Below are positions 9,852 to 50,664 of a stretch of 64,000 nt of DNA, in pieces; positions within the stretch are counted from its first letter, which is position 1; each line of letters starts with the position of its first letter. The position numbers and the translations under genes were made by a program. The stretch lies in contig OZ024744.1 of assembly GCA_964016885.1 (NCBI GenBank), forward strand, positions 41,974,001-42,038,000. The letters run 5' to 3'. The notes under the pieces were generated by a model. It saw nothing but the letters and a program-made list of their open reading frames with translations, was not told where the DNA came from and did no database searches. Source of the stretch: Eledone cirrhosa. Lineage: Eukaryota.

Positions 9852-9884
9852 ATATACCTATGTTCTAAGCGCTCTTTGTTGTTA

Positions 9885-9933
<49 letters not shown>

Positions 9934-13438: not shown

Positions 13439-13483
13439 GAATGAATAACAGGTAGACATCATAAAAAGGTAATTTATTCCGTG

Positions 13484-29254: not shown

Positions 29255-29747
29255 GGGTATCAAAAAATAAATATGGTATTTATAGGCCTCTTCAGGTGGT
29301 AGGAGAGGGTAGGGAGTGGGATGGGTAGAGGTCATTGGTTGAAAGAAAAGGGAATTCATTAAAAGCTAATTCTTTAAAGCTATAATTTATATTTAGAGTA
29401 ACAAAGACAGAAAGAATTCTACAAACAAGTTCAGAATGTGGTGCCACTCCTTATTTTGAAGTTTCTCTTAAGCTAACAATGCCTATATTTCAAGTGACTA
29501 TAAGATCGTTGGGGTCAGTCATGGTTGATGGATTTAAAGAAAAGGGAAATACTTTAAAAGGTAATTCTTTAAGGTTCTACTAAGAGTGACAAAGGCCTTG
29601 AGAATTCTATAGACCAGTTCAAAATATTGAGTGCCTATCATACCATTATCTTCAAGTTTCTCTTAAGCTATATTCCAAATGTCAACAGACACATTCACAA
29701 ACACACACACATACATATATACATGTATATATATATATACATACTAG

Positions 29748-29836
<89 letters not shown>

Positions 29837-29852
29837 ATATATGCACACATGC

Positions 29853-29934
<82 letters not shown>

Positions 29935-30464
29935 ATATTTGGGGAGGGTCATATTTGCGTAATATTGCCAGAATTAATAACAGAACACACTCACTGTTTG
30001 GTTGGTTTTCGCTTCTCGCTGTCTTTTATATATATATATCTGCGATCTAACTTACTCGGTCCTCAATGTTGCCATTGACTGACCGGCGGTCAAAAATAAT
30101 ACAGATACAATATAGACAAACACATATATATATAGTTTACATAATTTACATAAATCTTTCGTTGCACATCTGCAACATCGTCAGTGGTGTTATATTCATT
30201 GTTCCTCCTGTTGTGTTGTATGTCTACGCCATTTTTTTTTTGTTCAGTCTGTCTATATATTTATTTATTTATTTGCTTGTTTGTTTATCTTATTTTATTT
30301 TGTCTTCTTTGCGCATGCGTTTGCGTGTGTGTATAGTGTTATGTGTGACTAGTGTGACTAGTGTGTATAGTGTTGTGTCTGCTGGGTGACTAGTGTGTGT
30401 TTATGTGCTTGTGTATGTATTTATTTATCTTATTTTATTTATTTTATTTAATTTACTTATTTAT

Positions 30465-33400
30465 TTATACTTCTCTTAGGTCAGTGTTGTTTGTTTGGGT
30501 GTTGTTGTTGTTCCACTCATTCTTTCTGTTTAGCTTTGGTCTTCTAATTTCTATTTCACTGGCCTCTCTGATTTGCCTATCTGCTGGGTCATTCCTATGT
30601 TTAGATATTATTCTAATTTCTATGTTGTCTATGTTACCGTCATGTTGTTGTCTAGCATGTTCGTATAGTACTGACCCGTTTTTTCGTCCTTTTAGTTCCC
30701 CCCAGTGTTGGTCTATCCTTTCACCTATGCTACGAGCTGTCTCACCTATGTATGTTGTTGTCGTGTTTCTGCAAGTACCCTCTGTACATCTTATGCTATA
30801 GACTACGTTTCTAGTTTTACAGTTTATCCGGGGGTTCACCTTACATATGATACATTTCCTATTGGTACAGTGGGTTTTCTTAAAAGGGTAGGTTTTGCTG
30901 ATCAGGGATTTTATGGTGGTTCCTGGCTTTTCTACCACCTTTATTTTTAAGTGGGTCTTTCTCAGGGCCTTTCTACACTGGTTAGCTAATTTCCCTCCAG
31001 GGGTGGCGTCCACAAACATGACACTCTGATATCTCTGGTTGTCGTACCATGATGTGGCCTTCCCTATCTTATGTCTAGCCCTATCTAAGCTATTCCATGA
31101 TTTGCTCCTGTATAGTGGGCAAATTCCTTTCATGTCCAGTTCTATGAGGGTCTTATACTTTTCCATGGCTCCTTCGTATACTCTGACTCTGTCTCTTTGG
31201 TTGTAGCCAGAGAACTGCATGCGGTTGATGAAGTGTTGGATGTGTCCTTCCATTTCTGTTGGGTCGCACATGCTGGACACATTCTTCATCACTCGTACCA
31301 AATCTGCGATCAGAATATTAAACTTAGCACTACTGGACATTGCTGAGTTTTTGAGTATCAGGTATTTGGAGGCCATGGGTTTAGCATAGTGTGAGTGGAG
31401 AATTTGGGCTCTCTCGTCTATAGTGTTAATCCAGAGTTCTGTGTCTAATACAGGTAGTCTATTGTTAGGGTGTTTGGAAGGGAAGTCTATAGTTACAGTT
31501 ATACTCTGGTGTATGGAATTAGCTATCTGCTGGATGCTTTCCATCGTGCTACGTTCTAAATCAAACTTGTTAGTGCTCTCTAGTGGGGGTGTTCTTATAA
31601 CTATATTGATATCGTCTACATAACGAGAGTACATGATGAGGTCTATGGAGCTTTCATTAAGGAGGAGATCTTTAAGTCTCCTTTCCCACCATACCATGAA
31701 AAGGTTGGCAACATCACCAGCTATGCTGACGCCGATGGCTGCTCCCTCATTTTGGGTGTAGATTTTCTCATTGAACTTAAATATGTGGCCCTTTAGGGTA
31801 GTTTTGATACTAGCCCCTATTGCATGTGCGACCATTTTTCTTACCTGATCAGTGTTTTGGGGGGTCCGTATAGCTTTGGTCCACCCAATCCACCTTCCTA
31901 TGGGAGTCTTTTTAGCCATTGAGGTTATGGTGGGGGGTCTACCTCTTATAGGTCTACTAGGGCAGAAACATCTAAGGTCATGGCTGTCTAGGTAGTCAGT
32001 GTCGTAGGTAAGTCTAAGTAGGAGGCCCAGTTCGTCTGTGTCGACGTCGCAGAACTCCACCTCACTCTCAATGATCATCTCCACACATCTTTTCACAGCA
32101 AAATCAATGTTAATGGATGGGTACAGTGACACCACATCCATGCTGCCTATTATGCAGTTGGATAGGCTCCTGTTTTTGTTGCACTCACTGATTCTGCTGA
32201 GGAGGTCCTCTGTACTTTCACATACATCTGGGGACATCTTGATTATGGGGCGTATAACCATTGAGAGGAAGTAGGAGATCCTGTAGTTGCTAGCTATATT
32301 AGCTCCGCATACGGGTCTTGTTGGTGGTCCTGTTGTCGGGTCGTCGACTGTCTTGTGGTCTTTGCGGAGCCCATACAAGGGTGGTATGCCATTGTTAGAC
32401 GCCTGGAAGTTGTTGGCAGTGCGTCTGCTTGGCTTTAGGATGTCAGTCCACATCATCATGTGAGCGTTGAGGATTTTTTCTCTCCCATCGTGTGTTAGTT
32501 GTGCAACTTCGCTCGTGTTGGTGATGTGGGGTTGCATTGCCTCGATGTAGTTCGGCATGCTATCTATTGACATCCTACCAGACTTATCTGTGGGTAGACA
32601 CACTACCTCACCATCCCTTGTGCGCTGCTTGAGGCTAACCAAGCCTTCTACAGGTTTTATCCCAAGTTGTTGGGCCTCTGGTCTGCTCTGTCTCATAGTG
32701 TACCTGTCTACTACTTGTCTAATCTTATTTCTAGCTATGGTGAACTGTGCCTCCGTCTCGTCATCTATTTGCTGTGGTATGCAAACTCTTTTATTAAAGG
32801 GTAACCTCGTAGGATAGATATTACCCATCTTATATGTTTTGTCAGCTGGGTTGAAAAATAGTTTCTCTAAGGGGTTGTCGTTATTTCTATCGTCATAGTT
32901 GTGTGTGTTGCTATTATTGTTATCATGGTGGTTGTTGTTGTTTCTATCATTAGCATTAATATTATTATTGTTATGATTGCTAGATGTATTGTTGTTTACT
33001 TCACCGTTATTGTTGTTGTTGTTACTGCTATTTCTACCATTGTGGTTGTTACTATTATTATGTTTCTTGTTTTTGTTGATGTTGCTACATGTACTATTTC
33101 CATTATTACCACTGTGGTTATTGTTGTTGTTGTTGTTCGTATTGTTACCGTTATTACTACTGTGGTCACTGTTGCTGTGTCTGTGGTTAACGTTTCTATT
33201 ATTATTATTATTGTGGTTGTTGTTGTTCTGTCTATCGCTAGTATTATTACTATTATCACTATTTCTCACTTTCCTGCCATTGTTATGGTTATGGCTGTTA
33301 TTTCTATACCCAGAGTTATTGTTTATATTACTACTACCGTTATTATTGTTGTTGTTGTTTACCTTTGCATTCCAACGTATTTTTGTGAAACACTTTTCCA

Positions 33401-34100
33401 GCTCCGTTTTGCATTCCATAGGGTTAATCTTTTTGTAGATGGCAAATTTTGGTGGGAACTTTAGGATTTGTTGTTCTTGTTCACTGATTAAAGTGTTCCC
33501 ATAGATATTTACTGTGTGGTCATTGGTAAATTCTTCCGGTAGTTTTACATCACTCATACGGATGTTGTCGATGTTATCTGGGTATTTTTGAGAATATTCG
33601 ATTTTCCTTTCTTGTAGTTTTTTCTTATTCATCCATTCTAATTTCTTCTTGAAATGCCTACAGCATTCGTTTTGAGCATATTTCGTTTCGCGTCGGATGA
33701 CGCTCATGAAGTCATCTCTCTCGTTTGCTGTGATGAGATTTCGGATTTCCTTACCGTTGATGCGTTTTTGTCTGTAGAGTGCGTTGACTTTTGTGTATGT
33801 TGTTCTTTTCATATTAACTGTTATTGTGTGTTTTAGCCGTTCAGCTTGTGTTTTGTTCAATAATAAATTATTTACTTGTTTTGATATGTTTGTTGTGTAT
33901 GTTTTGGAGGAAACACAGTGTTTTAAGAAGCGGATTTGTTCTGTTGTTATTGTAGTTTTTATATAACAGAAAACAGTGTCTTTCAATAACCTTTCAGCTT
34001 GGCACAAGCTAATGCCATAGCGGCGATGAATTAGTTTTGCGAGGTTTTTTATATGAAATCGTGTGTCGAAACAGATATTGTTATATTTGGAGAGGGTCAT
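30465..34100 (-). CDS. Neptune-like PLE RT-GIY-YIG protein, 1211 aa, intact
   Basis: DKSG, LYGLRKDHK, SMDVVSLYPSI, GAAIG..ANLFM, RYVDD, LPVLD, Cys linker C..KCIIC..NC, VVY..YIGET, R..QH, RQIREA, LN. Confidence 0.92.
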   Translation of the reverse strand: MTLSKYNNICFDTRFHIKNLAKLIHRRYGISLCQAERLLKDTVFCYIKTTITTEQIRFLKHCVSSKTYTTNISKQVNNLLLNKTQAERLKHTITVNMKRTTYTKVNALYRQKRINGKEIRNLITANERDDFMSVIRRETKYAQNECCRHFKKKLEWMNKKKLQERKIEYSQKYPDNIDNIRMSDVKLPEEFTNDHTVNIYGNTLISEQEQQILKFPPKFAIYKKINPMECKTELEKCFTKIRWNAKVNNNNNNNGSSNINNNSGYRNNSHNHNNGRKVRNSDNSNNTSDRQNNNNHNNNNNRNVNHRHSNSDHSSNNGNNTNNNNNNNHSGNNGNSTCSNINKNKKHNNSNNHNGRNSSNNNNNNGEVNNNTSSNHNNNNINANDRNNNNHHDNNNSNTHNYDDRNNDNPLEKLFFNPADKTYKMGNIYPTRLPFNKRVCIPQQIDDETEAQFTIARNKIRQVVDRYTMRQSRPEAQQLGIKPVEGLVSLKQRTRDGEVVCLPTDKSGRMSIDSMPNYIEAMQPHITNTSEVAQLTHDGREKILNAHMMMWTDILKPSRRTANNFQASNNGIPPLYGLRKDHKTVDDPTTGPPTRPVCGANIASNYRISYFLSMVIRPIIKMSPDVCESTEDLLSRISECNKNRSLSNCIIGSMDVVSLYPSINIDFAVKRCVEMIIESEVEFCDVDTDELGLLLRLTYDTDYLDSHDLRCFCPSRPIRGRPPTITSMAKKTPIGRWIGWTKAIRTPQNTDQVRKMVAHAIGASIKTTLKGHIFKFNEKIYTQNEGAAIGVSIAGDVANLFMVWWERRLKDLLLNESSIDLIMYSRYVDDINIVIRTPPLESTNKFDLERSTMESIQQIANSIHQSITVTIDFPSKHPNNRLPVLDTELWINTIDERAQILHSHYAKPMASKYLILKNSAMSSSAKFNILIADLVRVMKNVSSMCDPTEMEGHIQHFINRMQFSGYNQRDRVRVYEGAMEKYKTLIELDMKGICPLYRSKSWNSLDRARHKIGKATSWYDNQRYQSVMFVDATPGGKLANQCRKALRKTHLKIKVVEKPGTTIKSLISKTYPFKKTHCTNRKCIICKVNPRINCKTRNVVYSIRCTEGTCRNTTTTYIGETARSIGERIDQHWGELKGRKNGSVLYEHARQQHDGNIDNIEIRIISKHRNDPADRQIREASEIEIRRPKLNRKNEWNNNNTQTNNTDLREV

Positions 34101-34612
34101 ATTTGCGTAATATTGCCAGAATTAATAACAGAACACACTCACTGTTTGGTTGGTTTTCGCTTCTCGCTGTCTTTTATATATATATATCTGCGATCTAACT
34201 TACTCGGTCCTCAATGTTGCCATTGACTGACCGGCGGTCAAAAATAATACAGATACAATATAGACAAACACATATATATATAGTTTACATAATTTACATA
34301 AATCTTTCGTTGCACATCTGCAACATCGTCAGTGGTGTTATATTCATTGTTCCTCCTGTTGTGTTGTATGTCTACGCCATTTTTTTTTTGTTCAGTCTGT
34401 CTATATATTTATTTATTTATTTGCTTGTTTGTTTATCTTATTTTATTTTGTCTTCTTTGCGCATGCGTTTGCGTGTGTGTATAGTGTTATGTGTGACTAG
34501 TGTGACTAGTGTGTATAGTGTTGTGTCTGCTGGGTGACTAGTGTGTGTTTATGTGCTTGTGTATGTATTTATTTATCTTATTTTATTTATTTTATTTAAT
34601 TTACTTATTTAT

Positions 34613-37360
34613 TTATACTTCTCTTAGGTCAGTGTTGTTTGTTTGGGTGTTGTTGTTGTTCCACTCATTCTTTCTGTTTAGCTTTGGTCTTCTAATTTCT
34701 ATTTCACTGGCCTCTCTGATTTGCCTATCTGCTGGGTCATTCCTATGTTTAGATATTATTCTAATTTCTATGTTGTCTATGTTACCGTCATGTTGTTGTC
34801 TAGCATGTTCGTATAGTACTGACCCGTTTTTTCGTCCTTTTAGTTCCCCCCAGTGTTGGTCTATCCTTTCACCTATGCTACGAGCTGTCTCACCTATGTA
34901 TGTTGTTGTCGTGTTTCTGCAAGTACCCTCTGTACATCTTATGCTATAGACTACGTTTCTAGTTTTACAGTTTATCCGGGGGTTCACCTTACATATGATA
35001 CATTTCCTATTGGTACAGTGGGTTTTCTTAAAAGGGTAGGTTTTGCTGATCAGGGATTTTATGGTGGTTCCTGGCTTTTCTACCACCTTTATTTTTAAGT
35101 GGGTCTTTCTCAGGGCCTTTCTACACTGGTTAGCTAATTTCCCTCCAGGGGTGGCGTCCACAAACATGACACTCTGATATCTCTGGTTGTCGTACCATGA
35201 TGTGGCCTTCCCTATCTTATGTCTAGCCCTATCTAAGCTATTCCATGATTTGCTCCTGTATAGTGGGCAAATTCCTTTCATGTCCAGTTCTATGAGGGTC
35301 TTATACTTTTCCATGGCTCCTTCGTATACTCTGACTCTGTCTCTTTGGTTGTAGCCAGAGAACTGCATGCGGTTGATGAAGTGTTGGATGTGTCCTTCCA
35401 TTTCTGTTGGGTCGCACATGCTGGACACATTCTTCATCACTCGTACCAAATCTGCGATCAGAATATTAAACTTAGCACTACTGGACATTGCTGAGTTTTT
35501 GAGTATCAGGTATTTGGAGGCCATGGGTTTAGCATAGTGTGAGTGGAGAATTTGGGCTCTCTCGTCTATAGTGTTAATCCAGAGTTCTGTGTCTAATACA
35601 GGTAGTCTATTGTTAGGGTGTTTGGAAGGGAAGTCTATAGTTACAGTTATACTCTGGTGTATGGAATTAGCTATCTGCTGGATGCTTTCCATCGTGCTAC
35701 GTTCTAAATCAAACTTGTTAGTGCTCTCTAGTGGGGGTGTTCTTATAACTATATTGATATCGTCTACATAACGAGAGTACATGATGAGGTCTATGGAGCT
35801 TTCATTAAGGAGGAGATCTTTAAGTCTCCTTTCCCACCATACCATGAAAAGGTTGGCAACATCACCAGCTATGCTGACGCCGATGGCTGCTCCCTCATTT
35901 TGGGTGTAGATTTTCTCATTGAACTTAAATATGTGGCCCTTTAGGGTAGTTTTGATACTAGCCCCTATTGCATGTGCGACCATTTTTCTTACCTGATCAG
36001 TGTTTTGGGGGGTCCGTATAGCTTTGGTCCACCCAATCCACCTTCCTATGGGAGTCTTTTTAGCCATTGAGGTTATGGTGGGGGGTCTACCTCTTATAGG
36101 TCTACTAGGGCAGAAACATCTAAGGTCATGGCTGTCTAGGTAGTCAGTGTCGTAGGTAAGTCTAAGTAGGAGGCCCAGTTCGTCTGTGTCGACGTCGCAG
36201 AACTCCACCTCACTCTCAATGATCATCTCCACACATCTTTTCACAGCAAAATCAATGTTAATGGATGGGTACAGTGACACCACATCCATGCTGCCTATTA
36301 TGCAGTTGGATAGGCTCCTGTTTTTGTTGCACTCACTGATTCTGCTGAGGAGGTCCTCTGTACTTTCACATACATCTGGGGACATCTTGATTATGGGGCG
36401 TATAACCATTGAGAGGAAGTAGGAGATCCTGTAGTTGCTAGCTATATTAGCTCCGCATACGGGTCTTGTTGGTGGTCCTGTTGTCGGGTCGTCGACTGTC
36501 TTGTGGTCTTTGCGGAGCCCATACAAGGGTGGTATGCCATTGTTAGACGCCTGGAAGTTGTTGGCAGTGCGTCTGCTTGGCTTTAGGATGTCAGTCCACA
36601 TCATCATGTGAGCGTTGAGGATTTTTTCTCTCCCATCGTGTGTTAGTTGTGCAACTTCGCTCGTGTTGGTGATGTGGGGTTGCATTGCCTCGATGTAGTT
36701 CGGCATGCTATCTATTGACATCCTACCAGACTTATCTGTGGGTAGACACACTACCTCACCATCCCTTGTGCGCTGCTTGAGGCTAACCAAGCCTTCTACA
36801 GGTTTTATCCCAAGTTGTTGGGCCTCTGGTCTGCTCTGTCTCATAGTGTACCTGTCTACTACTTGTCTAATCTTATTTCTAGCTATGGTGAACTGTGCCT
36901 CCGTCTCGTCATCTATTTGCTGTGGTATGCAAACTCTTTTATTAAAGGGTAACCTCGTAGGATAGATATTACCCATCTTATATGTTTTGTCAGCTGGGTT
37001 GAAAAATAGTTTCTCTAAGGGGTTGTCGTTATTTCTATCGTCATAGTTGTGTGTGTTGCTATTATTGTTATCATGGTGGTTGTTGTTGTTTCTATCATTA
37101 GCATTAATATTATTATTGTTATGATTGCTAGATGTATTGTTGTTTACTTCACCGTTATTGTTGTTGTTGTTACTGCTATTTCTACCATTGTGGTTGTTAC
37201 TATTATTATGTTTCTTGTTTTTGTTGATGTTGCTACATGTACTATTTCCATTATTACCACTGTGGTTATTGTTGTTGTTGTTGTTCGTATTGTTACCGTT
37301 ATTACTACTGTGGTCACTGTTGCTGTGTCTGTGGTTAACGTTTCTATTATTATTATTATT
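34613..37360 (-). pseudogene. 5'-truncated array unit (RT and EN intact, cut inside the Asn-rich region)
   Basis: Matches the full protein from NNNNNRNVNHRH onward. Confidence 0.9.
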
Positions 37361-37422
37361 AGAAACGTTTCTATTATTATTATTATTAGAAACGTTTCTA
37401 TTATTATTATTATTAGAAACGT
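37337..37422. repeat. Inversion junction: three copies of 27-bp aacgtttctattattattattattaga
   Basis: Direct reading; the first two unit boundaries form palindrome TAGAAACGTTTCTA. Confidence 0.95.
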
Positions 37423-37762
37423 AGTCTATAGCATAAGATGTACAGAGGGTACTTGCAGAAACACGACAACAACATACATAGGTGAGACAGCTCGTAGCAT
37501 AGGTGAAAGGATAGACCAACACTGGGGGGAACTAAAAGGACGAAAAAACGGGTCAGTACTATACGAACATGCTAGACACCAACATGACGGTAACATAGAC
37601 AACATAGAAATTAGAATAATATCTAAACATAGGAATGACCCAGCAGATAGGCAAATCAGAGAGGCCAGTGAAATAGAAATTAGAAGACCAAAGCTAAACA
37701 GAAAGAATGAGTGGAACAACAACAACACCCAAACAAACAACACTGACCTAAGAGAAGTATAA
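37414..37762 (+). pseudogene. 5'-truncated unit retaining only the GIY-YIG domain, followed by the 3' UTR
   Basis: Begins at RNVVYSIRC; matches the unit C-terminus with one Q>H change. Confidence 0.9.
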
Positions 37763-38274
37763 ATAAATAAGTAAATTAAATTAAATAAATAAAATAAGAT
37801 AAATAAATACATACACAAGCACATAAACACACACTAGTCACCCAGCAGACACAACACTATACACACTAGTCACACATCACACATAACACTATACACACAC
37901 GCAAACGCATGCGCAAAGAAGACAAAATAAAATAAGATAAACAAACAAGCAAATAAATAAATAAATATATAGACAGACTGAACAAAAAAAAAATGGCGCA
38001 GACATACAACACAACAGGAGGAACAATGAATATAACACCACTGACGATGTTGCAGATGTGCAACGAAAGATTTATGTAAATTATGTAAACTATATATATA
38101 TGTGTTTGTCTATATTGTATCTGTATTATTTTTGACCGCCGGTCAGTCAATGGCAACATTGAGGACCGAGTAAGTTAGATCGCAGATATATATATATATA
38201 AAAGACAGCGAGAAGCGAAAACCAACCAAACAGTGAGTGTGTTCTGTTATTAATTCTGGCAATATTACGCAAAT

Positions 38275-41200
38275 ATGACCCTCTCCAAATATAACAATAT
38301 CTGTTTCGACACACGATTTCATATAAAAAACCTCGCAAAACTAATTCATCGCCGCTATGGCATTAGCTTGTGCCAAGCTGAAAGGTTATTGAAAGACACT
38401 GTTTTCTGTTATATAAAAACTACAATAACAACAGAACAAATCCGCTTCTTAAAACACTGTGTTTCCTCCAAAACATACACAACAAACATATCAAAACAAG
38501 TAAATAATTTATTATTGAACAAAACACAAGCTGAACGGCTAAAACACACAATAACAGTTAATATGAAAAGAACAACATACACAAAAGTCAACGCACTCTA
38601 CAGACAAAAACGCATCAACGGTAAGGAAATCCGAAATCTCATCACAGCAAACGAGAGAGATGACTTCATGAGCGTCATCCGACGCGAAACGAAATATGCT
38701 CAAAACGAATGCTGTAGGCATTTCAAGAAGAAATTAGAATGGATGAATAAGAAAAAACTACAAGAAAGGAAAATCGAATATTCTCAAAAATACCCAGATA
38801 ACATCGACAACATCCGTATGAGTGATGTAAAACTACCGGAAGAATTTACCAATGACCACACAGTAAATATCTATGGGAACACTTTAATCAGTGAACAAGA
38901 ACAACAAATCCTAAAGTTACCACCAAAATTTGCCATCTACAAAAAGATTAACCCTATGGAATGCAAAACGGAGCTGGAAAAGTGTTTCACAAAAATACGT
39001 TGGAATGCAAAGGTAAACAACAACAACAATAATAACGGTAGTAGTAATATAAACAATAACTCTGGGTATAGAAATAACAGCCATAACCATAACAATGGCA
39101 GGAAAGTGAGAAATAGTGATAATAGTAATAATACTAGCGATAGACAGAACAACAACAACCACAATAATAATAATAATAGAAACGTTAACCACAGACACAG
39201 CAACAGTGACCACAGTGGTAATAATGGAAATAGTACATGTAGCAACATCAACAAAAACAAGAAACATAATAATAGTAACAACCACAATGGTAGAAATAGC
39301 AGTAACAACAACAACAATAACGGTGAAGTAAACAACAATACATCTAGCAATCATAACAATAATAATATTAATGCTAATGATAGAAACAACAACAACCACC
39401 ATGATAACAATAATAGCAACACACACAACTATGACGATAGAAATAACGACAACCCCTTAGAGAAACTATTTTTCAACCCAGCTGACAAAACATATAAGAT
39501 GGGTAATATCTATCCTACGAGGTTACCCTTTAATAAAAGAGTTTGCATACCACAGCAAATAGATGACGAGACGGAGGCACAGTTCACCATAGCTAGAAAT
39601 AAGATTAGACAAGTAGTAGACAGGTACACTATGAGACAGAGCAGACCAGAGGCCCAACAACTTGGGATAAAACCTGTAGAAGGCTTGGTTAGCCTCAAGC
39701 AGCGCACAAGGGATGGTGAGGTAGTGTGTCTACCCACAGATAAGTCTGGTAGGATGTCAATAGATAGCATGCCGAACTACATCGAGGCAATGCAACCCCA
39801 CATCACCAACACGAGCGAAGTTGCACAACTAACACACGATGGGAGAGAAAAAATCCTCAACGCTCACATGATGATGTGGACTGACATCCTAAAGCCAAGC
39901 AGACGCACTGCCAACAACTTCCAGGCGTCTAACAATGGCATACCACCCTTGTATGGGCTCCGCAAAGACCACAAGACAGTCGACGACCCGACAACAGGAC
40001 CACCAACAAGACCCGTATGCGGAGCTAATATAGCTAGCAACTACAGGATCTCCTACTTCCTCTCAATGGTTATACGCCCCATAATCAAGATGTCCCCAGA
40101 TGTATGTGAAAGTACAGAGGACCTCCTCAGCAGAATCAGTGAGTGCAACAAAAACAGGAGCCTATCCAACTGCATAATAGGCAGCATGGATGTGGTGTCA
40201 CTGTACCCATCCATTAACATTGATTTTGCTGTGAAAAGATGTGTGGAGATGATCATTGAGAGTGAGGTGGAGTTCTGCGACGTCGACACAGACGAACTGG
40301 GCCTCCTACTTAGACTTACCTACGACACTGACTACCTAGACAGCCATGACCTTAGATGTTTCTGCCCTAGTAGACCTATAAGAGGTAGACCCTCCACCAT
40401 AACCTCAATGGCTAAAAAGACTCCCATAGGAAGGTGGATTGGGTGGACCAAAGCTATACGGACCCCCCAAAACACTGATCAGGTAAGAAAAATGGTCGCA
40501 CATGCAATAGGGGCTAGTATCAAAACTACCCTAAAGGGCCACATATTTAAGTTCAATGAGAAAATCTACACCCAAAATGAGGGAGCAGCCATCGGCGTCA
40601 GCATAGCTGGTGATGTTGCCAACCTTTTCATGGTATGGTGGGAAAGGAGACTTAAAGATCTCCTCCTTAATGAAAGCTCCATAGACCTCATCATGTACTC
40701 TCGTTATGTAGACGATATCAATATAGTTATAAGAACACCCCCACTAGAGAGCACTAACAAGTTTGATTTAGAACGTAGCACGATGGAAAGCATCCAGCAG
40801 ATAGCTAATTCCATACACCAGAGTATAACTGTAACTATAGACTTCCCTTCCAAACACCCTAACAATAGACTACCTGTATTAGACACAGAACTCTGGATTA
40901 ACACTATAGACGAGAGAGCCCAAATTCTCCACTCACACTATGCTAAACCCATGGCCTCCAAATACCTGATACTCAAAAACTCAGCAATGTCCAGTAGTGC
41001 TAAGTTTAATATTCTGATCGCAGATTTGGTACGAGTGATGAAGAATGTGTCCAGCATGTGCGACCCAACAGAAATGGAAGGACACATCCAACACTTCATC
41101 AACCGCATGCAGTTCTCTGGCTACAACCAAAGAGACAGAGTCAGAGTATACGAAGGAGCCATGGAAAAGTATAAGACCCTCATAGAACTGGACATGAAAG

Positions 41201-41853
41201 GAATTTGCCCACTATACAGGAGCAAATCATGGAATAGCTTAGATAGGGCTAGACATAAGATAGGGAAGGCCACATCATGGTACGACAACCAGAGATATCA
41301 GAGTGTCATGTTTGTGGACGCCACCCCTGGAGGGAAATTAGCTAACCAGTGTAGAAAGGCCCTGAGAAAGACCCACTTAAAAATAAAGGTGGTAGAAAAG
41401 CCAGGAACCACCATAAAATCCCTGATCAGCAAAACCTACCCTTTTAAGAAAACCCACTGTACCAATAGGAAATGTATCATATGTAAGGTGAACCCCCGGA
41501 TAAACTGTAAAACTAGAAACGTAGTCTATAGCATAAGATGTACAGAGGGTACTTGCAGAAACACGACAACAACATACATAGGTGAGACAGCTCGTAGCAT
41601 AGGTGAAAGGATAGACCAACACTGGGGGGAACTAAAAGGACGAAAAAACGGGTCAGTACTATACGAACATGCTAGACAACAACATGACGGTAACATAGAC
41701 AACATAGAAATTAGAATAATATCTAAACATAGGAATGACCCAGCAGATAGGCAAATCAGAGAGGCCAGTGAAATAGAAATTAGAAGACCAAAGCTAAACA
41801 GAAAGAATGAGTGGAACAACAACAACACCCAAACAAACAACACTGACCTATGA
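38275..41853 (+). CDS. PLE RT-EN, 1192-aa variant (48-bp in-frame deletion; AGA>TGA three codons early)
   Basis: Comparison with neighbouring units. Confidence 0.9.
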   Translation: MTLSKYNNICFDTRFHIKNLAKLIHRRYGISLCQAERLLKDTVFCYIKTTITTEQIRFLKHCVSSKTYTTNISKQVNNLLLNKTQAERLKHTITVNMKRTTYTKVNALYRQKRINGKEIRNLITANERDDFMSVIRRETKYAQNECCRHFKKKLEWMNKKKLQERKIEYSQKYPDNIDNIRMSDVKLPEEFTNDHTVNIYGNTLISEQEQQILKLPPKFAIYKKINPMECKTELEKCFTKIRWNAKVNNNNNNNGSSNINNNSGYRNNSHNHNNGRKVRNSDNSNNTSDRQNNNNHNNNNNRNVNHRHSNSDHSGNNGNSTCSNINKNKKHNNSNNHNGRNSSNNNNNNGEVNNNTSSNHNNNNINANDRNNNNHHDNNNSNTHNYDDRNNDNPLEKLFFNPADKTYKMGNIYPTRLPFNKRVCIPQQIDDETEAQFTIARNKIRQVVDRYTMRQSRPEAQQLGIKPVEGLVSLKQRTRDGEVVCLPTDKSGRMSIDSMPNYIEAMQPHITNTSEVAQLTHDGREKILNAHMMMWTDILKPSRRTANNFQASNNGIPPLYGLRKDHKTVDDPTTGPPTRPVCGANIASNYRISYFLSMVIRPIIKMSPDVCESTEDLLSRISECNKNRSLSNCIIGSMDVVSLYPSINIDFAVKRCVEMIIESEVEFCDVDTDELGLLLRLTYDTDYLDSHDLRCFCPSRPIRGRPSTITSMAKKTPIGRWIGWTKAIRTPQNTDQVRKMVAHAIGASIKTTLKGHIFKFNEKIYTQNEGAAIGVSIAGDVANLFMVWWERRLKDLLLNESSIDLIMYSRYVDDINIVIRTPPLESTNKFDLERSTMESIQQIANSIHQSITVTIDFPSKHPNNRLPVLDTELWINTIDERAQILHSHYAKPMASKYLILKNSAMSSSAKFNILIADLVRVMKNVSSMCDPTEMEGHIQHFINRMQFSGYNQRDRVRVYEGAMEKYKTLIELDMKGICPLYRSKSWNSLDRARHKIGKATSWYDNQRYQSVMFVDATPGGKLANQCRKALRKTHLKIKVVEKPGTTIKSLISKTYPFKKTHCTNRKCIICKVNPRINCKTRNVVYSIRCTEGTCRNTTTTYIGETARSIGERIDQHWGELKGRKNGSVLYEHARQQHDGNIDNIEIRIISKHRNDPADRQIREASEIEIRRPKLNRKNEWNNNNTQTNNTDL

Positions 41854-42372
41854 GAAGTATAAATAAATAAGTAAATTAAATTAAATAAATAAAATAAGAT
41901 AAATAAATACATACACAAGCACATAAACACACACTAGTCACCCAGCAGACACAACACTATACACACTAGTCACACATCACACATAACACTATACACACAC
42001 GCAAACGCATGCGCAAAGAAGACAAAATAAAATAAGATAAACAAACAAGCAAATAAATAAATAAATATATAGACAGACTGAACAAAAAAAAAATGGCGTA
42101 GACATACAACACAACAGGAGGAACAATGAATATAACACCACTGACGATGTTGCAGATGTGCAACGAAAGATTTATGTAAATTATGTAAACTATATATATA
42201 TGTGTTTGTCTATATTGTATCTGTATTATTTTTGACCGCCGGTCAGTCAATGGCAACATTGAGGACCGAGTAAGTTAGATCGCAGATATATATATATAAA
42301 AGACAGCGAGAAGCGAAAACCAACCAAACAGTGAGTGTGTTCTGTTATTAATTCTGGCAATATTACGCAAAT

Positions 42373-45300
42373 ATGACCCTCCCCAAATATAACAATATCT
42401 GTTTCGACACACGATTTCATATAAAAAACCTCGCAAAACTAATTCATCGCCGCTATGGCATTAGCTTGTGCCAAGCTGAAAGGTTATTGAAAGACACTGT
42501 TTTCTGTTATATAAAAACTACAATAACAACAGAACAAATCCGCTTCTTAAAACACTGTGTTTCCTCCAAAACATACACAACAAACATATCAAAACAAGTA
42601 AATAATTTATTATTGAACAAAACACAAGCTGAACGGCTAAAACACACAATAACAGTTAATATGAAAAGAACAACATACACAAAAGTCAACGCACTCTACA
42701 GACAAAAACGCATCAACGGTAAGGAAATCCGAAATCTCATCACAGCAAACGAGAGAGATGACTTCATGAGCGTCATCCGACGCGAAACGAAATATGCTCA
42801 AAACGAATGCTGTAGGCATTTCAAGAAGAAATTAGAATGGATGAATAAGAAAAAACTACAAGAAAGGAAAATCGAATATTCTCAAAAATACCCAGATAAC
42901 ATCGACAACATCCGTATGAGTGATGTAAAACTACCGGAAGAATTTACCAATGACCACACAGTAAATATCTATGGGAACACTTTAATCAGTGAACAAGAAC
43001 AACAAATCCTAAAGTTCCCACCAAAATTTGCCATCTACAAAAAGATTAACCCTATGGAATGCAAAACGGAGCTGGAAAAGTGTTTCACAAAAATACGTTG
43101 GAATGCAAAGGTAAACAACAACAACAATAATAACGGTAGTAGTAATATAAACAATAACTCTGGGTATAGAAATAACAGCCATAACCATAACAATGGCAGG
43201 AAAGTGAGAAATAGTGATAATAGTAATAATACTAGCGATAGACAGAACAACAACAACCACAATAATAATAATAATAGAAACGTTAACCACAGACACAGCA
43301 ACAGTGACCACAGTAGTAATAACGGTAACAATACGAACAACAACAACAACAATAACCACAGTGGTAATAATGGAAATAGTACATGTAGCAACATCAACAA
43401 AAACAAGAAACATAATAATAGTAACAACCACAATGGTAGAAATAGCAGTAACAACAACAACAATAACGGTGAAGTAAACAACAATACATCTAGCAATCAT
43501 AACAATAATAATATTAATGCTAATGATAGAAACAACAACAACCACCATGATAACAATAATAGCAACACACACAACTATGACGATAGAAATAACGACAACC
43601 CCTTAGAGAAACTATTTTTCAACCCAGCTGACAAAACATATAAGATGGGTAATATCTATCCTACGAGGTTACCCTTTAATAAAAGAGTTTGCATACCACA
43701 GCAAATAGATGACGAGACGGAGGCACAGTTCACCATAGCTAGAAATAAGATTAGACAAGTAGTAGACAGGTACACTATGAGACAGAGCAGACCAGAGGCC
43801 CAACAACTTGGGATAAAACCTGTAGAAGGCTTGGTTAGCCTCAAGCAGCGCACAAGGGATGGTGAGGTAGTGTGTCTACCCACAGATAAGTCTGGTAGGA
43901 TGTCAATAGATAGCATGCCGAACTACATCGAGGCAATGCAACCCCACATCACCAACACGAGCGAAGTTGCACAACTAACACACGATGGGAGAGAAAAAAT
44001 CCTCAACGCTCACATGATGATGTGGACTGACATCCTAAAGCCAAGCAGACGCACTGCCAACAACTTCCAGGCGTCTAACAATGGCATACCACCCTTGTAT
44101 GGGCTCCGCAAAGACCACAAGACAGTCGACGACCCGACAACAGGACCACCAACAAGACCCGTATGCGGAGCTAATATAGCTAGCAACTACAGGATCTCCT
44201 ACTTCCTCTCAATGGTTATACGCCCCATAATCAAGATGTCCCCAGATGTATGTGAAAGTACAGAGGACCTCCTCAGCAGAATCAGTGAGTGCAACAAAAA
44301 CAGGAGCCTATCCAACTGCATAATAGGCAGCATGGATGTGGTGTCACTGTACCCATCCATTAACATTGATTTTGCTGTGAAAAGATGTGTGGAGATGATC
44401 ATTGAGAGTGAGGTGGAGTTCTGCGACGTCGACACAGACGAACTGGGCCTCCTACTTAGACTTACCTACGACACTGACTACCTAGACAGCCATGACCTTA
44501 GATGTTTCTGCCCTAGTAGACCTATAAGAGGTAGACCCCCCACCATAACCTCAATGGCTAAAAAGACTCCCATAGGAAGGTGGATTGGGTGGACCAAAGC
44601 TATACGGACCCCCCAAAACACTGATCAGGTAAGAAAAATGGTCGCACATGCAATAGGGGCTAGTATCAAAACTACCCTAAAGGGCCACATATTTAAGTTC
44701 AATGAGAAAATCTACACCCAAAATGAGGGAGCAGCCATCGGCGTCAGCATAGCTGGTGATGTTGCCAACCTTTTCATGGTATGGTGGGAAAGGAGACTTA
44801 AAGATCTCCTCCTTAATGAAAGCTCCATAGACCTCATCATGTACTCTCGTTATGTAGACGATATCAATATAGTTATAAGAACACCCCCACTAGAGAGCAC
44901 TAACAAGTTTGATTTAGAACGTAGCACGATGGAAAGCATCCAGCAGATAGCTAATTCCATACACCAGAGTATAACTGTAACTATAGACTTCCCTTCCAAA
45001 CACCCTAACAATAGACTACCTGTATTAGACACAGAACTCTGGATTAACACTATAGACGAGAGAGCCCAAATTCTCCACTCACACTATGCTAAACCCATGG
45101 CCTCCAAATACCTGATACTCAAAAACTCAGCAATGTCCAGTAGTGCTAAGTTTAATATTCTGATCGCAGATTTGGTACGAGTGATGAAGAATGTGTCCAG
45201 CATGTGCGACCCAACAGAAATGGAAGGACACATCCAACACTTCATCAACCGCATGCAGTTCTCTGGCTACAACCAAAGAGACAGAGTCAGAGTATACGAA

Positions 45301-46008
45301 GGAGCCATGGAAAAGTATAAGACCCTCATAGAACTGGACATGAAAGGAATTTGCCCACTATACAGGAGCAAATCATGGAATAGCTTAGATAGGGCTAGAC
45401 ATAAGATAGGGAAGGCCACATCATGGTACGACAACCAGAGATATCAGAGTGTCATGTTTGTGGACGCCACCCCTGGAGGGAAATTAGCTAACCAGTGTAG
45501 AAAGGCCCTGAGAAAGACCCACTTAAAAATAAAGGTGGTAGAAAAGCCAGGAACCACCATAAAATCCCTGATCAGCAAAACCTACCCTTTTAAGAAAACC
45601 CACTGTACCAATAGGAAATGTATCATATGTAAGGTGAACCCCCGGATAAACTGTAAAACTAGAAACGTAGTCTATAGCATAAGATGTACAGAGGGTACTT
45701 GCAGAAACACGACAACAACATACATAGGTGAGACAGCTCGTAGCATAGGTGAAAGGATAGACCAACACTGGGGGGAACTAAAAGGACGAAAAAACGGGTC
45801 AGTACTATACGAACATGCTAGACAACAACATGACGGTAACATAGACAACATAGAAATTAGAATAATATCTAAACATAGGAATGACCCAGCAGATAGGCAA
45901 ATCAGAGAGGCCAGTGAAATAGAAATTAGAAGACCAAAGCTAAACAGAAAGAATGAGTGGAACAACAACAACACCCAAACAAACAACACTGACCTAAGAG
46001 AAGTATAA
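42373..46008 (+). CDS. PLE RT-EN, 1211 aa, intact
   Basis: Same motifs as 30465-34100. Confidence 0.92.
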   Translation: MTLPKYNNICFDTRFHIKNLAKLIHRRYGISLCQAERLLKDTVFCYIKTTITTEQIRFLKHCVSSKTYTTNISKQVNNLLLNKTQAERLKHTITVNMKRTTYTKVNALYRQKRINGKEIRNLITANERDDFMSVIRRETKYAQNECCRHFKKKLEWMNKKKLQERKIEYSQKYPDNIDNIRMSDVKLPEEFTNDHTVNIYGNTLISEQEQQILKFPPKFAIYKKINPMECKTELEKCFTKIRWNAKVNNNNNNNGSSNINNNSGYRNNSHNHNNGRKVRNSDNSNNTSDRQNNNNHNNNNNRNVNHRHSNSDHSSNNGNNTNNNNNNNHSGNNGNSTCSNINKNKKHNNSNNHNGRNSSNNNNNNGEVNNNTSSNHNNNNINANDRNNNNHHDNNNSNTHNYDDRNNDNPLEKLFFNPADKTYKMGNIYPTRLPFNKRVCIPQQIDDETEAQFTIARNKIRQVVDRYTMRQSRPEAQQLGIKPVEGLVSLKQRTRDGEVVCLPTDKSGRMSIDSMPNYIEAMQPHITNTSEVAQLTHDGREKILNAHMMMWTDILKPSRRTANNFQASNNGIPPLYGLRKDHKTVDDPTTGPPTRPVCGANIASNYRISYFLSMVIRPIIKMSPDVCESTEDLLSRISECNKNRSLSNCIIGSMDVVSLYPSINIDFAVKRCVEMIIESEVEFCDVDTDELGLLLRLTYDTDYLDSHDLRCFCPSRPIRGRPPTITSMAKKTPIGRWIGWTKAIRTPQNTDQVRKMVAHAIGASIKTTLKGHIFKFNEKIYTQNEGAAIGVSIAGDVANLFMVWWERRLKDLLLNESSIDLIMYSRYVDDINIVIRTPPLESTNKFDLERSTMESIQQIANSIHQSITVTIDFPSKHPNNRLPVLDTELWINTIDERAQILHSHYAKPMASKYLILKNSAMSSSAKFNILIADLVRVMKNVSSMCDPTEMEGHIQHFINRMQFSGYNQRDRVRVYEGAMEKYKTLIELDMKGICPLYRSKSWNSLDRARHKIGKATSWYDNQRYQSVMFVDATPGGKLANQCRKALRKTHLKIKVVEKPGTTIKSLISKTYPFKKTHCTNRKCIICKVNPRINCKTRNVVYSIRCTEGTCRNTTTTYIGETARSIGERIDQHWGELKGRKNGSVLYEHARQQHDGNIDNIEIRIISKHRNDPADRQIREASEIEIRRPKLNRKNEWNNNNTQTNNTDLREV

Positions 46009-46280
46009 ATAAATAAGTAAATTAAATTAAATAAATAAAATAAGATAAATAAATACATACACAAGCACATAAACACACACTAGTCACCCAGCAGACACAA
46101 CACTATACACACTAGTCACACATCACACATAACACTATACACACACGCAAACGCATGCGCAAAGAAGACAAAATAAAATAAGATAAACAAACAAGCAAAT
46201 AAATAAATAAATATATAGACAGACTGAACAAAAAAAAAATGGCGTAGACATACAACACAACAGGAGGAACAATGAATATA

Positions 46281-46325
46281 ACACCACTGACGATGTTGCA
46301 GATGTGCAACGAAAGATTTATGTAA
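46281..46325 (+). ncRNA. Hammerhead-like motif in each inter-ORF segment (cores at 38041, 42141, 46287, 50433, 54579, 58725, 62877 on +; 30184, 34332 on -)
   Basis: CTGACGA-t-GTTGCA(gatg)TGCAAC-GAAA-gattta; AGAUUU self-pairs with wobbles; stem I is weak. Confidence 0.5.
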
Positions 46326-46436
46326 ATTATGTAAACTATATATATATGTGTTTGTCTATATTGTATCTGTATTATTTTTGACCGCCGGTCAGTCAATGGC
46401 AACATTGAGGACCGAGTAAGTTAGATCGCAGATATA

Positions 46437-46482
46437 TATATATAAAAGACAGCGAGAAGCGAAAACCAACCAAACAGTGAGT
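46437..46482 (+). promoter_or_regulatory. Possible TATA box plus initiator-like element, repeated in every unit
   Basis: TATATAAAAG ~75 bp upstream of ATG with ACAGT ~35 bp downstream; motif match only. Confidence 0.3.
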
Positions 46483-46518
46483 GTGTTCTGTTATTAATTC
46501 TGGCAATATTACGCAAAT

Positions 46519-49500
46519 ATGACCCTCCCCAAATATAACAATATCTGTTTCGACACACGATTTCATATAAAAAACCTCGCAAAACTAATTCATCGCCGCT
46601 ATGGCATTAGCTTGTGCCAAGCTGAAAGGTTATTGAAAGACACTGTTTTCTGTTATATAAAAACTACAATAACAACAGAACAAATCCGCTTCTTAAAACA
46701 CTGTGTTTCCTCCAAAACATACACAACAAACATATCAAAACAAGTAAATAATTTATTATTGAACAAAACACAAGCTGAACGGCTAAAACACACAATAACA
46801 GTTAATATGAAAAGAACAACATACACAAAAGTCAACGCACTCTACAGACAAAAACGCATCAACGGTAAGGAAATCCGAAATCTCATCACAGCAAACGAGA
46901 GAGATGACTTCATGAGCGTCATCCGACGCGAAACGAAATATGCTCAAAACGAATGCTGTAGGCATTTCAAGAAGAAATTAGAATGGATGAATAAGAAAAA
47001 ACTACAAGAAAGGAAAATCGAATATTCTCAAAAATACCCAGATAACATCGACAACATCCGTATGAGTGATGTAAAACTACCGGAAGAATTTACCAATGAC
47101 CACACAGTAAATATCTATGGGAACACTTTAATCAGTGAACAAGAACAACAAATCCTAAAGTTCCCACCAAAATTTGCCATCTACAAAAAGATTAACCCTA
47201 TGGAATGCAAAACGGAGCTGGAAAAGTGTTTCACAAAAATACGTTGGAATGCAAAGGTAAACAACAACAACAATAATAACGGTAGTAGTAATATAAACAA
47301 TAACTCTGGGTATAGAAATAACAGCCATAACCATAACAATGGCAGGAAAGTGAGAAATAGTGATAATAGTAATAATACTAGCGATAGACAGAACAACAAC
47401 AACCACAATAATAATAATAATAGAAACGTTAACCACAGACACAGCAACAGTGACCACAGTAGTAATAACGGTAACAATACGAACAACAACAACAACAATA
47501 ACCACAGTGGTAATAATGGAAATAGTACATGTAGCAACATCAACAAAAACAAGAAACATAATAATAGTAACAACCACAATGGTAGAAATAGCAGTAACAA
47601 CAACAACAATAACGGTGAAGTAAACAACAATACATCTAGCAATCATAACAATAATAATATTAATGCTAATGATAGAAACAACAACAACCACCATGATAAC
47701 AATAATAGCAACACACACAACTATGACGATAGAAATAACGACAACCCCTTAGAGAAACTATTTTTCAACCCAGCTGACAAAACATATAAGATGGGTAATA
47801 TCTATCCTACGAGGTTACCCTTTAATAAAAGAGTTTGCATACCACAGCAAATAGATGACGAGACGGAGGCACAGTTCACCATAGCTAGAAATAAGATTAG
47901 ACAAGTAGTAGACAGGTACACTATGAGACAGAGCAGACCAGAGGCCCAACAACTTGGGATAAAACCTGTAGAAGGCTTGGTTAGCCTCAAGCAGCGCACA
48001 AGGGATGGTGAGGTAGTGTGTCTACCCACAGATAAGTCTGGTAGGATGTCAATAGATAGCATGCCGAACTACATCGAGGCAATGCAACCCCACATCACCA
48101 ACACGAGCGAAGTTGCACAACTAACACACGATGGGAGAGAAAAAATCCTCAACGCTCACATGATGATGTGGACTGACATCCTAAAGCCAAGCAGACGCAC
48201 TGCCAACAACTTCCAGGCGTCTAACAATGGCATACCACCCTTGTATGGGCTCCGCAAAGACCACAAGACAGTCGACGACCCGACAACAGGACCACCAACA
48301 AGACCCGTATGCGGAGCTAATATAGCTAGCAATTACAGGATCTCCTACTTCCTCTCAATGGTTATACGCCCCATAATCAAGATGTCCCCAGATGTATGTG
48401 AAAGTACAGAGGACCTCCTCAGCAGAATCAGTGAGTGCAACAAAAACAGGAGCCTATCCAACTGCATAATAGGCAGCATGGATGTGGTGTCACTGTACCC
48501 ATCCATTAACATTGATTTTGCTGTGAAAAGATGTGTGGAGATGATCATTGAGAGTGAGGTGGAGTTCTGCGACGTCGACACAGACGAACTGGGCCTCCTA
48601 CTTAGACTTACCTACGACACTGACTACCTAGACAGCCATGACCTTAGATGTTTCTGCCCTAGTAGACCTATAAGAGGTAGACCCCCCACCATAACCTCAA
48701 TGGCTAAAAAGACTCCCATAGGAAGGTGGATTGGGTGGACCAAAGCTATACGGACCCCCCAAAACACTGATCAGGTAAGAAAAATGGTCGCACATGCAAT
48801 AGGGGCTAGTATCAAAACTACCCTAAAGGGCCACATATTTAAGTTCAATGAGAAAATCTACACCCAAAATGAGGGAGCAGCCATCGGCGTCAGCATAGCT
48901 GGTGATGTTGCCAACCTTTTCATGGTATGGTGGGAAAGGAGACTTAAAGATCTCCTCCTTAATGAAAGCTCCATAGACCTCATCATGTACTCTCGTTATG
49001 TAGACGATATCAATATAGTTATAAGAACACCCCCACTAGAGAGCACTAACAAGTTTGATTTAGAACGTAGCACGATGGAAAGCATCCAGCAGATAGCTAA
49101 TTCCATACACCAGAGTATAACTGTAACTATAGACTTCCCTTCCAAACACCCTAACAATAGACTACCTGTATTAGACACAGAACTCTGGATTAACACTATA
49201 GACGAGAGAGCCCAAATTCTCCACTCACACTATGCTAAACCCATGGCCTCCAAATACCTGATACTCAAAAACTCAGCAATGTCCAGTAGTGCTAAGTTTA
49301 ATATTCTGATCGCAGATTTGGTACGAGTGATGAAGAATGTGTCCAGCATGTGCGACCCAACAGAAATGGAAGGACACATCCAACACTTCATCAACCGCAT
49401 GCAGTTCTCTGGCTACAACCAAAGAGACAGAGTCAGAGTATACGAAGGAGCCATGGAAAAGTATAAGACCCTCATAGAACTGGACATGAAAGGAATTTGC

Positions 49501-50154
49501 CCACTATACAGGAGCAAATCATGGAATAGCTTAGATAGGGCTAGACATAAGATAGGGAAGGCCACATCATGGTACGACAACCAGAGATATCAGAGTGTCA
49601 TGTTTGTGGACGCCACCCCTGGAGGGAAATTAGCTAACCAGTGTAGAAAGGCCCTGAGAAAGACCCACTTAAAAATAAAGGTGGTAGAAAAGCCAGGAAC
49701 CACCATAAAATCCCTGATCAGCAAAACCTACCCTTTTAAGAAAACCCACTGTACCAATAGGAAATGTATCATATGTAAGGTGAACCCCCGGATAAACTGT
49801 AAAACTAGAAACGTAGTCTATAGCATAAGATGTACAGAGGGTACTTGCAGAAACACGACAACAACATACATAGGTGAGACAGCTCGTAGCATAGGTGAAA
49901 GGATAGACCAACACTGGGGGGAACTAAAAGGACGAAAAAACGGGTCAGTACTATACGAACATGCTAGACAACAACATGACGGTAACATAGACAACATAGA
50001 AATTAGAATAATATCTAAACATAGGAATGACCCAGCAGATAGGCAAATCAGAGAGGCCAGTGAAATAGAAATTAGAAGACCAAAGCTAAACAGAAAGAAT
50101 GAGTGGAACAACAACAACACCCAAACAAACAACACTGACCTAAGAGAAGTATAA
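46519..50154 (+). CDS. PLE RT-EN, 1211 aa, intact
   Basis: Same protein as 42373-46008. Confidence 0.92.
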   Translation: MTLPKYNNICFDTRFHIKNLAKLIHRRYGISLCQAERLLKDTVFCYIKTTITTEQIRFLKHCVSSKTYTTNISKQVNNLLLNKTQAERLKHTITVNMKRTTYTKVNALYRQKRINGKEIRNLITANERDDFMSVIRRETKYAQNECCRHFKKKLEWMNKKKLQERKIEYSQKYPDNIDNIRMSDVKLPEEFTNDHTVNIYGNTLISEQEQQILKFPPKFAIYKKINPMECKTELEKCFTKIRWNAKVNNNNNNNGSSNINNNSGYRNNSHNHNNGRKVRNSDNSNNTSDRQNNNNHNNNNNRNVNHRHSNSDHSSNNGNNTNNNNNNNHSGNNGNSTCSNINKNKKHNNSNNHNGRNSSNNNNNNGEVNNNTSSNHNNNNINANDRNNNNHHDNNNSNTHNYDDRNNDNPLEKLFFNPADKTYKMGNIYPTRLPFNKRVCIPQQIDDETEAQFTIARNKIRQVVDRYTMRQSRPEAQQLGIKPVEGLVSLKQRTRDGEVVCLPTDKSGRMSIDSMPNYIEAMQPHITNTSEVAQLTHDGREKILNAHMMMWTDILKPSRRTANNFQASNNGIPPLYGLRKDHKTVDDPTTGPPTRPVCGANIASNYRISYFLSMVIRPIIKMSPDVCESTEDLLSRISECNKNRSLSNCIIGSMDVVSLYPSINIDFAVKRCVEMIIESEVEFCDVDTDELGLLLRLTYDTDYLDSHDLRCFCPSRPIRGRPPTITSMAKKTPIGRWIGWTKAIRTPQNTDQVRKMVAHAIGASIKTTLKGHIFKFNEKIYTQNEGAAIGVSIAGDVANLFMVWWERRLKDLLLNESSIDLIMYSRYVDDINIVIRTPPLESTNKFDLERSTMESIQQIANSIHQSITVTIDFPSKHPNNRLPVLDTELWINTIDERAQILHSHYAKPMASKYLILKNSAMSSSAKFNILIADLVRVMKNVSSMCDPTEMEGHIQHFINRMQFSGYNQRDRVRVYEGAMEKYKTLIELDMKGICPLYRSKSWNSLDRARHKIGKATSWYDNQRYQSVMFVDATPGGKLANQCRKALRKTHLKIKVVEKPGTTIKSLISKTYPFKKTHCTNRKCIICKVNPRINCKTRNVVYSIRCTEGTCRNTTTTYIGETARSIGERIDQHWGELKGRKNGSVLYEHARQQHDGNIDNIEIRIISKHRNDPADRQIREASEIEIRRPKLNRKNEWNNNNTQTNNTDLREV

Positions 50155-50664
50155 ATAAATAAGTAAATTAAATTAAATAAATAAAATAAGATAAATAAAT
50201 ACATACACAAGCACATAAACACACACTAGTCACCCAGCAGACACAACACTATACACACTAGTCACACATCACACATAACACTATACACACACGCAAACGC
50301 ATGCGCAAAGAAGACAAAATAAAATAAGATAAACAAACAAGCAAATAAATAAATAAATATATAGACAGACTGAACAAAAAAAAAATGGCGTAGACATACA
50401 ACACAACAGGAGGAACAATGAATATAACACCACTGACGATGTTGCAGATGTGCAACGAAAGATTTATGTAAATTATGTAAACTATATATATATGTGTTTG
50501 TCTATATTGTATCTGTATTATTTTTGACCGCCGGTCAGTCAATGGCAACATTGAGGACCGAGTAAGTTAGATCGCAGATATATATATATAAAAGACAGCG
50601 AGAAGCGAAAACCAACCAAACAGTGAGTGTGTTCTGTTATTAATTCTGGCAATATTACGCAAAT

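Follow-up and report, generated by a model that had tools for sequence, protein, structure and literature searches.

Two arms of a Penelope-like element (PLE) array in Eledone cirrhosa are joined head to head by a perfect 27-bp sequence present in 3.2 tandem copies. The reiteration is real, non-random and tied to the junction. We tentatively read it as an iterated DNA-templated insertion that joined two cDNA ends, most likely of the polymerase theta kind (SD-MMEJ/TMEJ), and we give this reading slightly less than an even chance. All positions refer to the window, the whole 64,000-nt stretch of DNA analyzed here, and statements from the literature refer to the available portions of the cited papers.

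The junction lies in a young array of ~4146-bp Penelope-like units that runs from 29927 to the window end (64000). Unit coordinates are those of a reference copy at 46059–50204. The left arm is 5'-truncated at unit 1349, the 5' edge of an (AAT)5 tract, and its far end, 26 nt into the ORF, lies at an (AT)n tract. The (AT)n microsatellite at the left end of the array is the likely insertion target. Tandem units, an inverted 5'-truncated copy and a microsatellite target together reproduce the layout of PLEs with a C-terminal endonuclease (EN+).

29711..29930, no strand: (AT)n microsatellite at the left end of the array, putative insertion target
29927..37360, minus strand: left arm, made up of unit 1349–4146, one full unit, then 1–486
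37414..64000, plus strand: right arm, over six tandem units after a 5' truncation at unit 3748; extends beyond the window
46498..50154, plus strand: reference intact ORF, 1218 codons stop to stop

Array copies are 99.6–100% alike, and two right-arm units are identical. The exception is 37813–41912, at ~98.9% by BLAST, mostly owing to one 48-bp deletion. This deletion, at 39209, is in frame, falls between repeats and shortens the Asn insert of the first right-arm ORF. In the sixth right-arm ORF, a 4-bp duplication at 62046 shifts the reading frame. With copies >99.8% alike apart from the one at 98.9%, little time would remain for later change.

Sequence variants within the array bear on how its units were copied. 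Variants at unit 470, 1105, 288, 63–64 and 4116 are common to non-adjacent copies and to both arms, which speaks against rolling-circle copying of one monomer and argues for a mixed multimeric template or later exchange. Six of the eight copy-private differences fall in the 13% of the array that adjoins the junction in the right arm, 37414–41912 (binomial 1e-4), and one of the private differences, at 37579, is nearly absent from other family copies. This clustering could mean that synthesis close to the join was error-prone or that the donor copy was a different one. The two arms themselves could derive from one insertion event or from a repair join between two older arrays.

The reiteration is exact and sits at the point where the arms meet. 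Tandem Repeats Finder reports period 27, 3.2 copies, 100% matches and 0 indels over 37337–37422. The initial annotation had described the 27-mer as present three times at an opposite-orientation join of two sites sharing a motif, one in the Asn region and one at the endonuclease start. Both points hold. The minus arm reaches 37360, the plus arm begins at 37414 and the 27-mer spans them in 3.2 copies; the 9-mer TAGAAACGT occurs twice per ~4146-bp unit, at unit 1363 (site A) and unit 3748 (site B, the region of codon 1103, CKTRNVVY). A single join of A to B would hold the 27-mer once, and the observed insert exceeds that single-join model by 54 bp.

37337..37422, no strand: junction insert, perfect 27-bp unit in 3.2 copies, 85% A+T
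37338..37368, plus strand: one-unit hairpin, predicted 9-bp stem (37338–46 with 37360–68) and 13-nt ATT loop
37360..37373, no strand: first 14-bp palindrome, where the sense 9-mer meets the antisense site-A copy via ACGT
37387..37400, no strand: second 14-bp palindrome, of the same origin as the first, sense 9-mer into antisense site A
47407..47430, plus strand: site A in an intact unit, (AAT)5 tract then the 9-mer TAGAAACGT; unit 1349–1372, in the Asn-rich region
49806..49814, plus strand: site B in an intact unit, the 9-mer TAGAAACGT; unit 3748–3756, at the start of the endonuclease domain

The 27-mer is a chimera of the two strands. Base-by-base matching assigns 24 of its 27 nt to site A in antisense (unit 1372 to 1349) and the remaining 3 nt to the sense strand. 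The sense 9-mer bridges into the next 27-mer, with the ACGT core as the overlap; this gives the 14-bp palindrome TAGAAACGTTTCTA, of which the window has two occurrences (37360 and 37387). No rotation of the 27-mer is present on either strand of the element unit, where uninterrupted matches reach 24 nt at most. A unit built of 24 antisense nt and 3 nt from the opposite strand therefore calls for a template of DNA that already held a join. The initial annotation had proposed a telomerase-like stutter on element RNA, and this part of it finds no support, since stuttering along one RNA template cannot yield such a chimera. What survives of the telomerase-like reading is a formal likeness only, in that a primer would realign, and would do so on DNA.

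Local sequence at the junction would permit such realignment. The arm ends overlap by 1 nt, and the self-complementary ACGT core makes re-annealing over 4–6 nt possible. The 9-mer, which the initial annotation had cast as the microhomology used for realignment, is a direct repeat within the element and so is not itself the annealing microhomology of an inverted join; the usable overlap is its ACGT core. The stretch 37338..37368 folds as DNA with a predicted –6.4 kcal/mol, and this modeled hairpin is a snap-back signature. Each 27-mer also amounts to nine codons, so the frame is kept, and on the minus strand it translates as NNNNNRNVS, three times over, leading into the left-arm ORF. A 972-codon open frame on the minus strand (34613–37531) passes through the junction into the intact left-arm RT-EN part; its first Met is codon 186, preceded by 185 codons without one.

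Chance does not readily produce this arrangement. A flush match of at least 9 nt between the start of one arm and the first 30 nt of the other arose in 0.20% of 194,340 random truncation-point pairs, which implies that the 9-mer common to both sites was involved in the join. Across the 34 kb of array (29927–64000), a search for perfect tandems of period 10–200 with two full copies returned one hit, the junction-spanning triplet.

Iterated templated insertion could build the junction in five steps. Both arms would be primed from the target ends and stop, one at unit 1349 and the other at unit 3748, so that two antisense 3' ends face one another. The sense 9-mer would then be added to the left end, which would snap back on its own site A or pair by 1 nt with the right end and copy it; either route would give a 9-bp inverted repeat with a 13-nt loop. 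Next, the right end would copy the AT-rich left end through site A, and the product would be a short DNA template that begins and ends with ACGT(T), the two occurrences being 27 nt apart. The left primer would re-anneal by the ACGT core at the 3' end of this template and copy 27 nt, twice; each new unit could fold into a hairpin, which would aid its release from the template. Synthesis would finally continue into site B and the join would be sealed.

Simulation shows that this path is feasible. A realignment model with a 1-nt first pairing, 2–5-nt later pairings and 20–29-nt tracts reproduces the exact sequence in 30 parameter sets, a match that makes the path possible and does not prove that it was taken. 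The initial annotation's idea of repeated realignment before the template switch stands to that extent, as feasible. The 15-nt tract offers 10 T positions as possible ends, and all three units end alike, an identity that primer realignment on a short DNA template would explain.

The insert has several hallmarks of SD-MMEJ and polymerase theta repair. It is a direct and inverted copy of sequence adjoining the break, an inverted repeat crosses the junction, the unit is 85% A+T, and the 1-nt overlap is followed by 2–5 nt pairings in the model. In snap-back SD-MMEJ the product carries an inverted repeat that spans the junction, and several rounds of synthesis yield overlapping copies of neighboring sequence (PMC2943611). 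Templated insertions by theta are favored at AT-rich, microhomology-poor ends, with a first microhomology that is short and a second that is longer (PMC7165422). Theta alternates between cis and trans copying (PMC4912351, PMC5068794), and the host enzyme makes multi-round templated insertions, both direct and inverted (PMC2943611, PMC7165422, PMC4912351).

Size is where the junction departs from theta products. Its 20–29-nt tracts and 54-bp net insert exceed the sizes typical in PMC7165422, where first tracts are rarely longer than 10 bp and insertions measure 3–30 bp, with several rounds allowing longer inserts; equally long cases may appear in the supplementary figures of PMC2943611 and PMC7165422 that deal with complex multi-round insertions. 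Further points weigh against the theta reading: identical units are equally expected from slippage, and the array has other slip-type changes; the sequence does not name an enzyme; the right end of the insertion lies beyond the window, and two older arrays could have been joined by repair; no read among the matches listed supports the junction; and the case is a single junction (n = 1).

Several simpler geometries for the join were rejected. Fold-back of a single molecule in the cell would make the arms mirror copies, and they are not: the right arm and the mirrored left arm are separated by 14 events in 5035 nt, and the left arm differs from five possible right-arm registers by 9–11 events in 7434 nt, end effects included. 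The same differences argue against a fold-back read artifact. Classical twin priming of the L1 type was set aside, since priming at unit 486 and truncation at unit 3748 are not adjacent.

The element's own reverse transcriptase (RT) may have done the work instead, an alternative that we rate as unlikely. It would jump from one cDNA end to the other, re-prime twice on the short DNA template and then run on, which amounts to the initial annotation's idea with DNA rather than RNA as template. If the join formed during insertion, the RT would necessarily have been at the site, and tracts of 20–29 nt are longer than those typical of theta. Palindromes are frequent at inverted PLE junctions and have been read as self-priming followed by template jumps (PMC3846280). 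The initial annotation had also pointed to the kinship of PLE RTs with telomerase RT, and PMC8557442 indeed places the PLE RT as sister to TERT. Other junctions speak against a routine RT trait: none of the seven other head-to-head junctions has a spanning tandem, weak comparators though they are. An in vitro study of a PLE (PMC11167929) calls the second-strand and joining steps not yet validated. In the literature searched, which includes few subscription papers, nothing was listed on reiterative PLE synthesis or on short perfect reiterations at PLE inversion junctions.

These seven junctions come from the window and from metagenomes. A second PLE family at 13438–18838 encodes RT and GIY-YIG, is frameshifted near 16750, and has an inverted 5'-truncated arm, a partial tandem and (TA)n at its right end. 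Its head-to-head junction (14795/14796) is crossed by a 7-bp stem with a 9-nt loop, a stem match equaled in 2.7% of 28,845 random pairs, and has no reiteration. Related loci numbered 79, all from metagenome contigs and none from viral contigs; five of the 79 gave six head-to-head junctions, in distant RT-only PLE-like families. One of them joins two points with a 5-nt overlap; the other five fold back at a hairpin carried by the element, and two of these are the same junction in one locus. The five fold-backs are not independent, and the comparators are weak. Reiteration was absent from all six. A spanning tandem is thus present in one of eight head-to-head junctions, the window's two included, and that one is the discovery case. 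The RT-only PLE-like families at loci L050, L051, L061, L063, L065 and L075 have complex pLTR stacks and recurrent fold-back junctions at a conserved hairpin common to two families.

Other repeats share the window. A third PLE fragment, 5'-truncated and with an Asn run, occupies 7643–8773 on the minus strand, and 24071–26334 is a LINE-like remnant in which two reading frames hold APE-type endonuclease and RT domains. An A-rich element of ~1.1 kb is present twice, in opposite orientations, at 4476–5540 and 8744–9891; this pair was rejected as a third junction, each copy lying at its own (TA)n tracts.

Later slippage would dispense with reiterative synthesis altogether, and we regard it as improbable yet viable. 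A single join would have formed first (snap-back, 9-bp annealing, one 27-mer) and would then have been duplicated to three by slippage between two AACGT direct repeats 27 bp apart, followed by a second slip or unequal exchange. It stays viable because the single join has these 5-bp repeats, flanking a hairpin-forming stretch, and because the array shows slip-type changes (the 48-bp deletion and the 4-bp duplication). Slippage copies a unit exactly, and other family copies have a longer ATT tract at the site (39 reads in run X10). Against this, slippage would need two rare events at one 27-bp spot in a very young array, the rest of whose 34 kb has no tandem duplication of 10 bp or more.

The element that made the array encodes a single ORF. 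The reference copy (46498..50154) carries, in order, an Asn-rich insert, an RT with YVDD, a CX4CxxC linker and C-terminal GIY-YIG-type motifs. The RT matches Pfam RVT_1 at E=2e-4, under the curated cut-off, with YVDD present. A search with the RT-EN part returned 84 homologs; the top one, at 68%, is a protein labeled Octopus vulgaris. The endonuclease had no Pfam match to GIY-YIG, and its motifs were assigned by pattern (CX4CxxC at 1085, CX4C at 1112, YIG at 1124, a His pair); linker and endonuclease motifs are conserved across 23 aligned sequences. Judged from these motifs, the layout matches the endonuclease-containing PLEs of PMC8557442.

The pLTR holds a motif resembling a hammerhead core with stem II (46287–46314), identified by eye and repeated in each unit. 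Rfam gave no hammerhead match within 29000–47000 and otherwise returned only microsatellite-driven miRNA matches below the gathering score; the ribozyme region folds no better than shuffles. In run X10, 82,124 reads leave the window sequence just past the hammerhead-like core (38070), and the pLTR is a depth peak. This exit and depth suggest a very abundant non-autonomous or variant pLTR family.

The Asn insert of this family is unusually long. Between RW and LPFN it spans 191 residues, 45% of them Asn, vs 34–69 residues in 20 homologs (the pattern matched in 21 of 85 proteins, query included), which leaves ~140 extra Asn-rich residues relative to those homologs. Asn-rich inserts have been proposed to arise through self-priming and template jumps at (AAT)n tracts (PMC3846280), and the triplet junction fits such an origin. 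A bolder extension, which we consider doubtful, is that the Penelope RT has latent repeat-addition activity, realigning at the cDNA-to-cDNA join on a DNA template of its own making much as telomerase realigns on RNA, and that the junction, its 27-mer being nine in-frame codons, is a snapshot of Asn-rich insert growth.

An assembly or library artifact, in which the triplet or the whole inversion stems from a chimeric or fold-back read, is very improbable. Palindromes are difficult to sequence, a point in its favor. Part of the window sequence was found in eight of the 12 public runs listed, and four were compared over 34970–39150, one full unit including the junction; three of these are contigs, with rare variants dropped, and one is RAD-seq, with depth 2–14 in the neighboring bin. 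Among the matches listed, none crosses the junction in these four runs, a further point for an artifact, but the runs are not known to come from the source individual. Listed loose ends at 37360 (one contig in X1, two in X3) and the joint 34970–37414 follow the normal unit. We read an X10 match, 37360–37093, as a variant of the family whose ATT tract is longer, and not as the junction. The array's family is very abundant and 5'-truncated in runs X3 and X4. Against an artifact stand the differences between the arms (14 events in 5035 nt and 9–11 in 7434 nt, end effects included) and the two identical right-arm units. A head-to-head layout with a microsatellite end is moreover normal for PLEs (PMC8557442), and the head-to-head layout recurs in the second family at 14795.

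True telomerase-type addition, with the RT realigning on one short stretch of element RNA, is scarcely credible: it would yield a perfect short tandem and the PLE RT is related to TERT, yet neither strand offers a contiguous template (24 of 27 nt at most), passes on RNA could end at 10 T positions while three units end alike, and the idea works only if the RNA derived from an earlier copy in which a single join was already present.

Known EN+ PLEs share most of the architecture seen here. They too have tandem units, a head-to-head inverted 5'-truncated arm and a (TA)n target, and they end shortly into the ORF, with an Asn-rich insert and a junction hairpin (PMC8557442; PMC3846280). Unlike those described, both arms here are multi-unit and start at two distant internal points, and the perfect threefold reiteration has no counterpart in the available portions of PMC8557442 and PMC3846280. 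How PLE arms are joined head to head is described as open (PMC8557442, PMC11167929). At the base level, the join seen here appears to have used DNA-templated, strand-switching synthesis between separately made arms.

The junction also resembles products of other retroelements and of repair. As in L1 twin priming and R2 snap-back, two cDNA ends meet head to head (PMC11702581, PMC2912911, PMC11371274), and the priming of a cDNA 3' end on cDNA recalls R2, whose insertions include snap-back junctions (PMC11371274). L1 inversion junctions resemble NHEJ/MMEJ products; most L1 twin priming differs in that the priming point adjoins the first cDNA's end (PMC11702581), whereas here the points are unit 486 and unit 3748. 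SD-MMEJ and theta insertions share a flank-copied insert in direct and inverted forms, a junction-spanning inverted repeat, AT-richness, short then longer microhomology and several rounds (PMC2943611, PMC7165422, PMC4912351, PMC5068794). In contrast to theta insertions, the 27-nt steps and 54-bp net insert are long and the units are error-free. Scars of this class are known from L1, R2 and theta repair, and the junction, being one case, changes little alone. It is a ready substrate for the question of PLE RT versus host polymerase theta, and if the RT made it, it would inform how telomerase repeat addition and Asn-rich inserts originated.

Telomerase adds repeats by primer realignment on a fixed RNA template. 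The likeness of the junction to this process is formal, a primer that would realign on a short template with terminal direct repeats. The bacterial tandem-repeat RTs DRT2 and DRT10 are formally alike in the same way (PMC12039810, 10.1101/2025.10.16.682844). All three systems use a fixed RNA template, whereas the PLE junction would have used a one-off DNA template for only two extra rounds.
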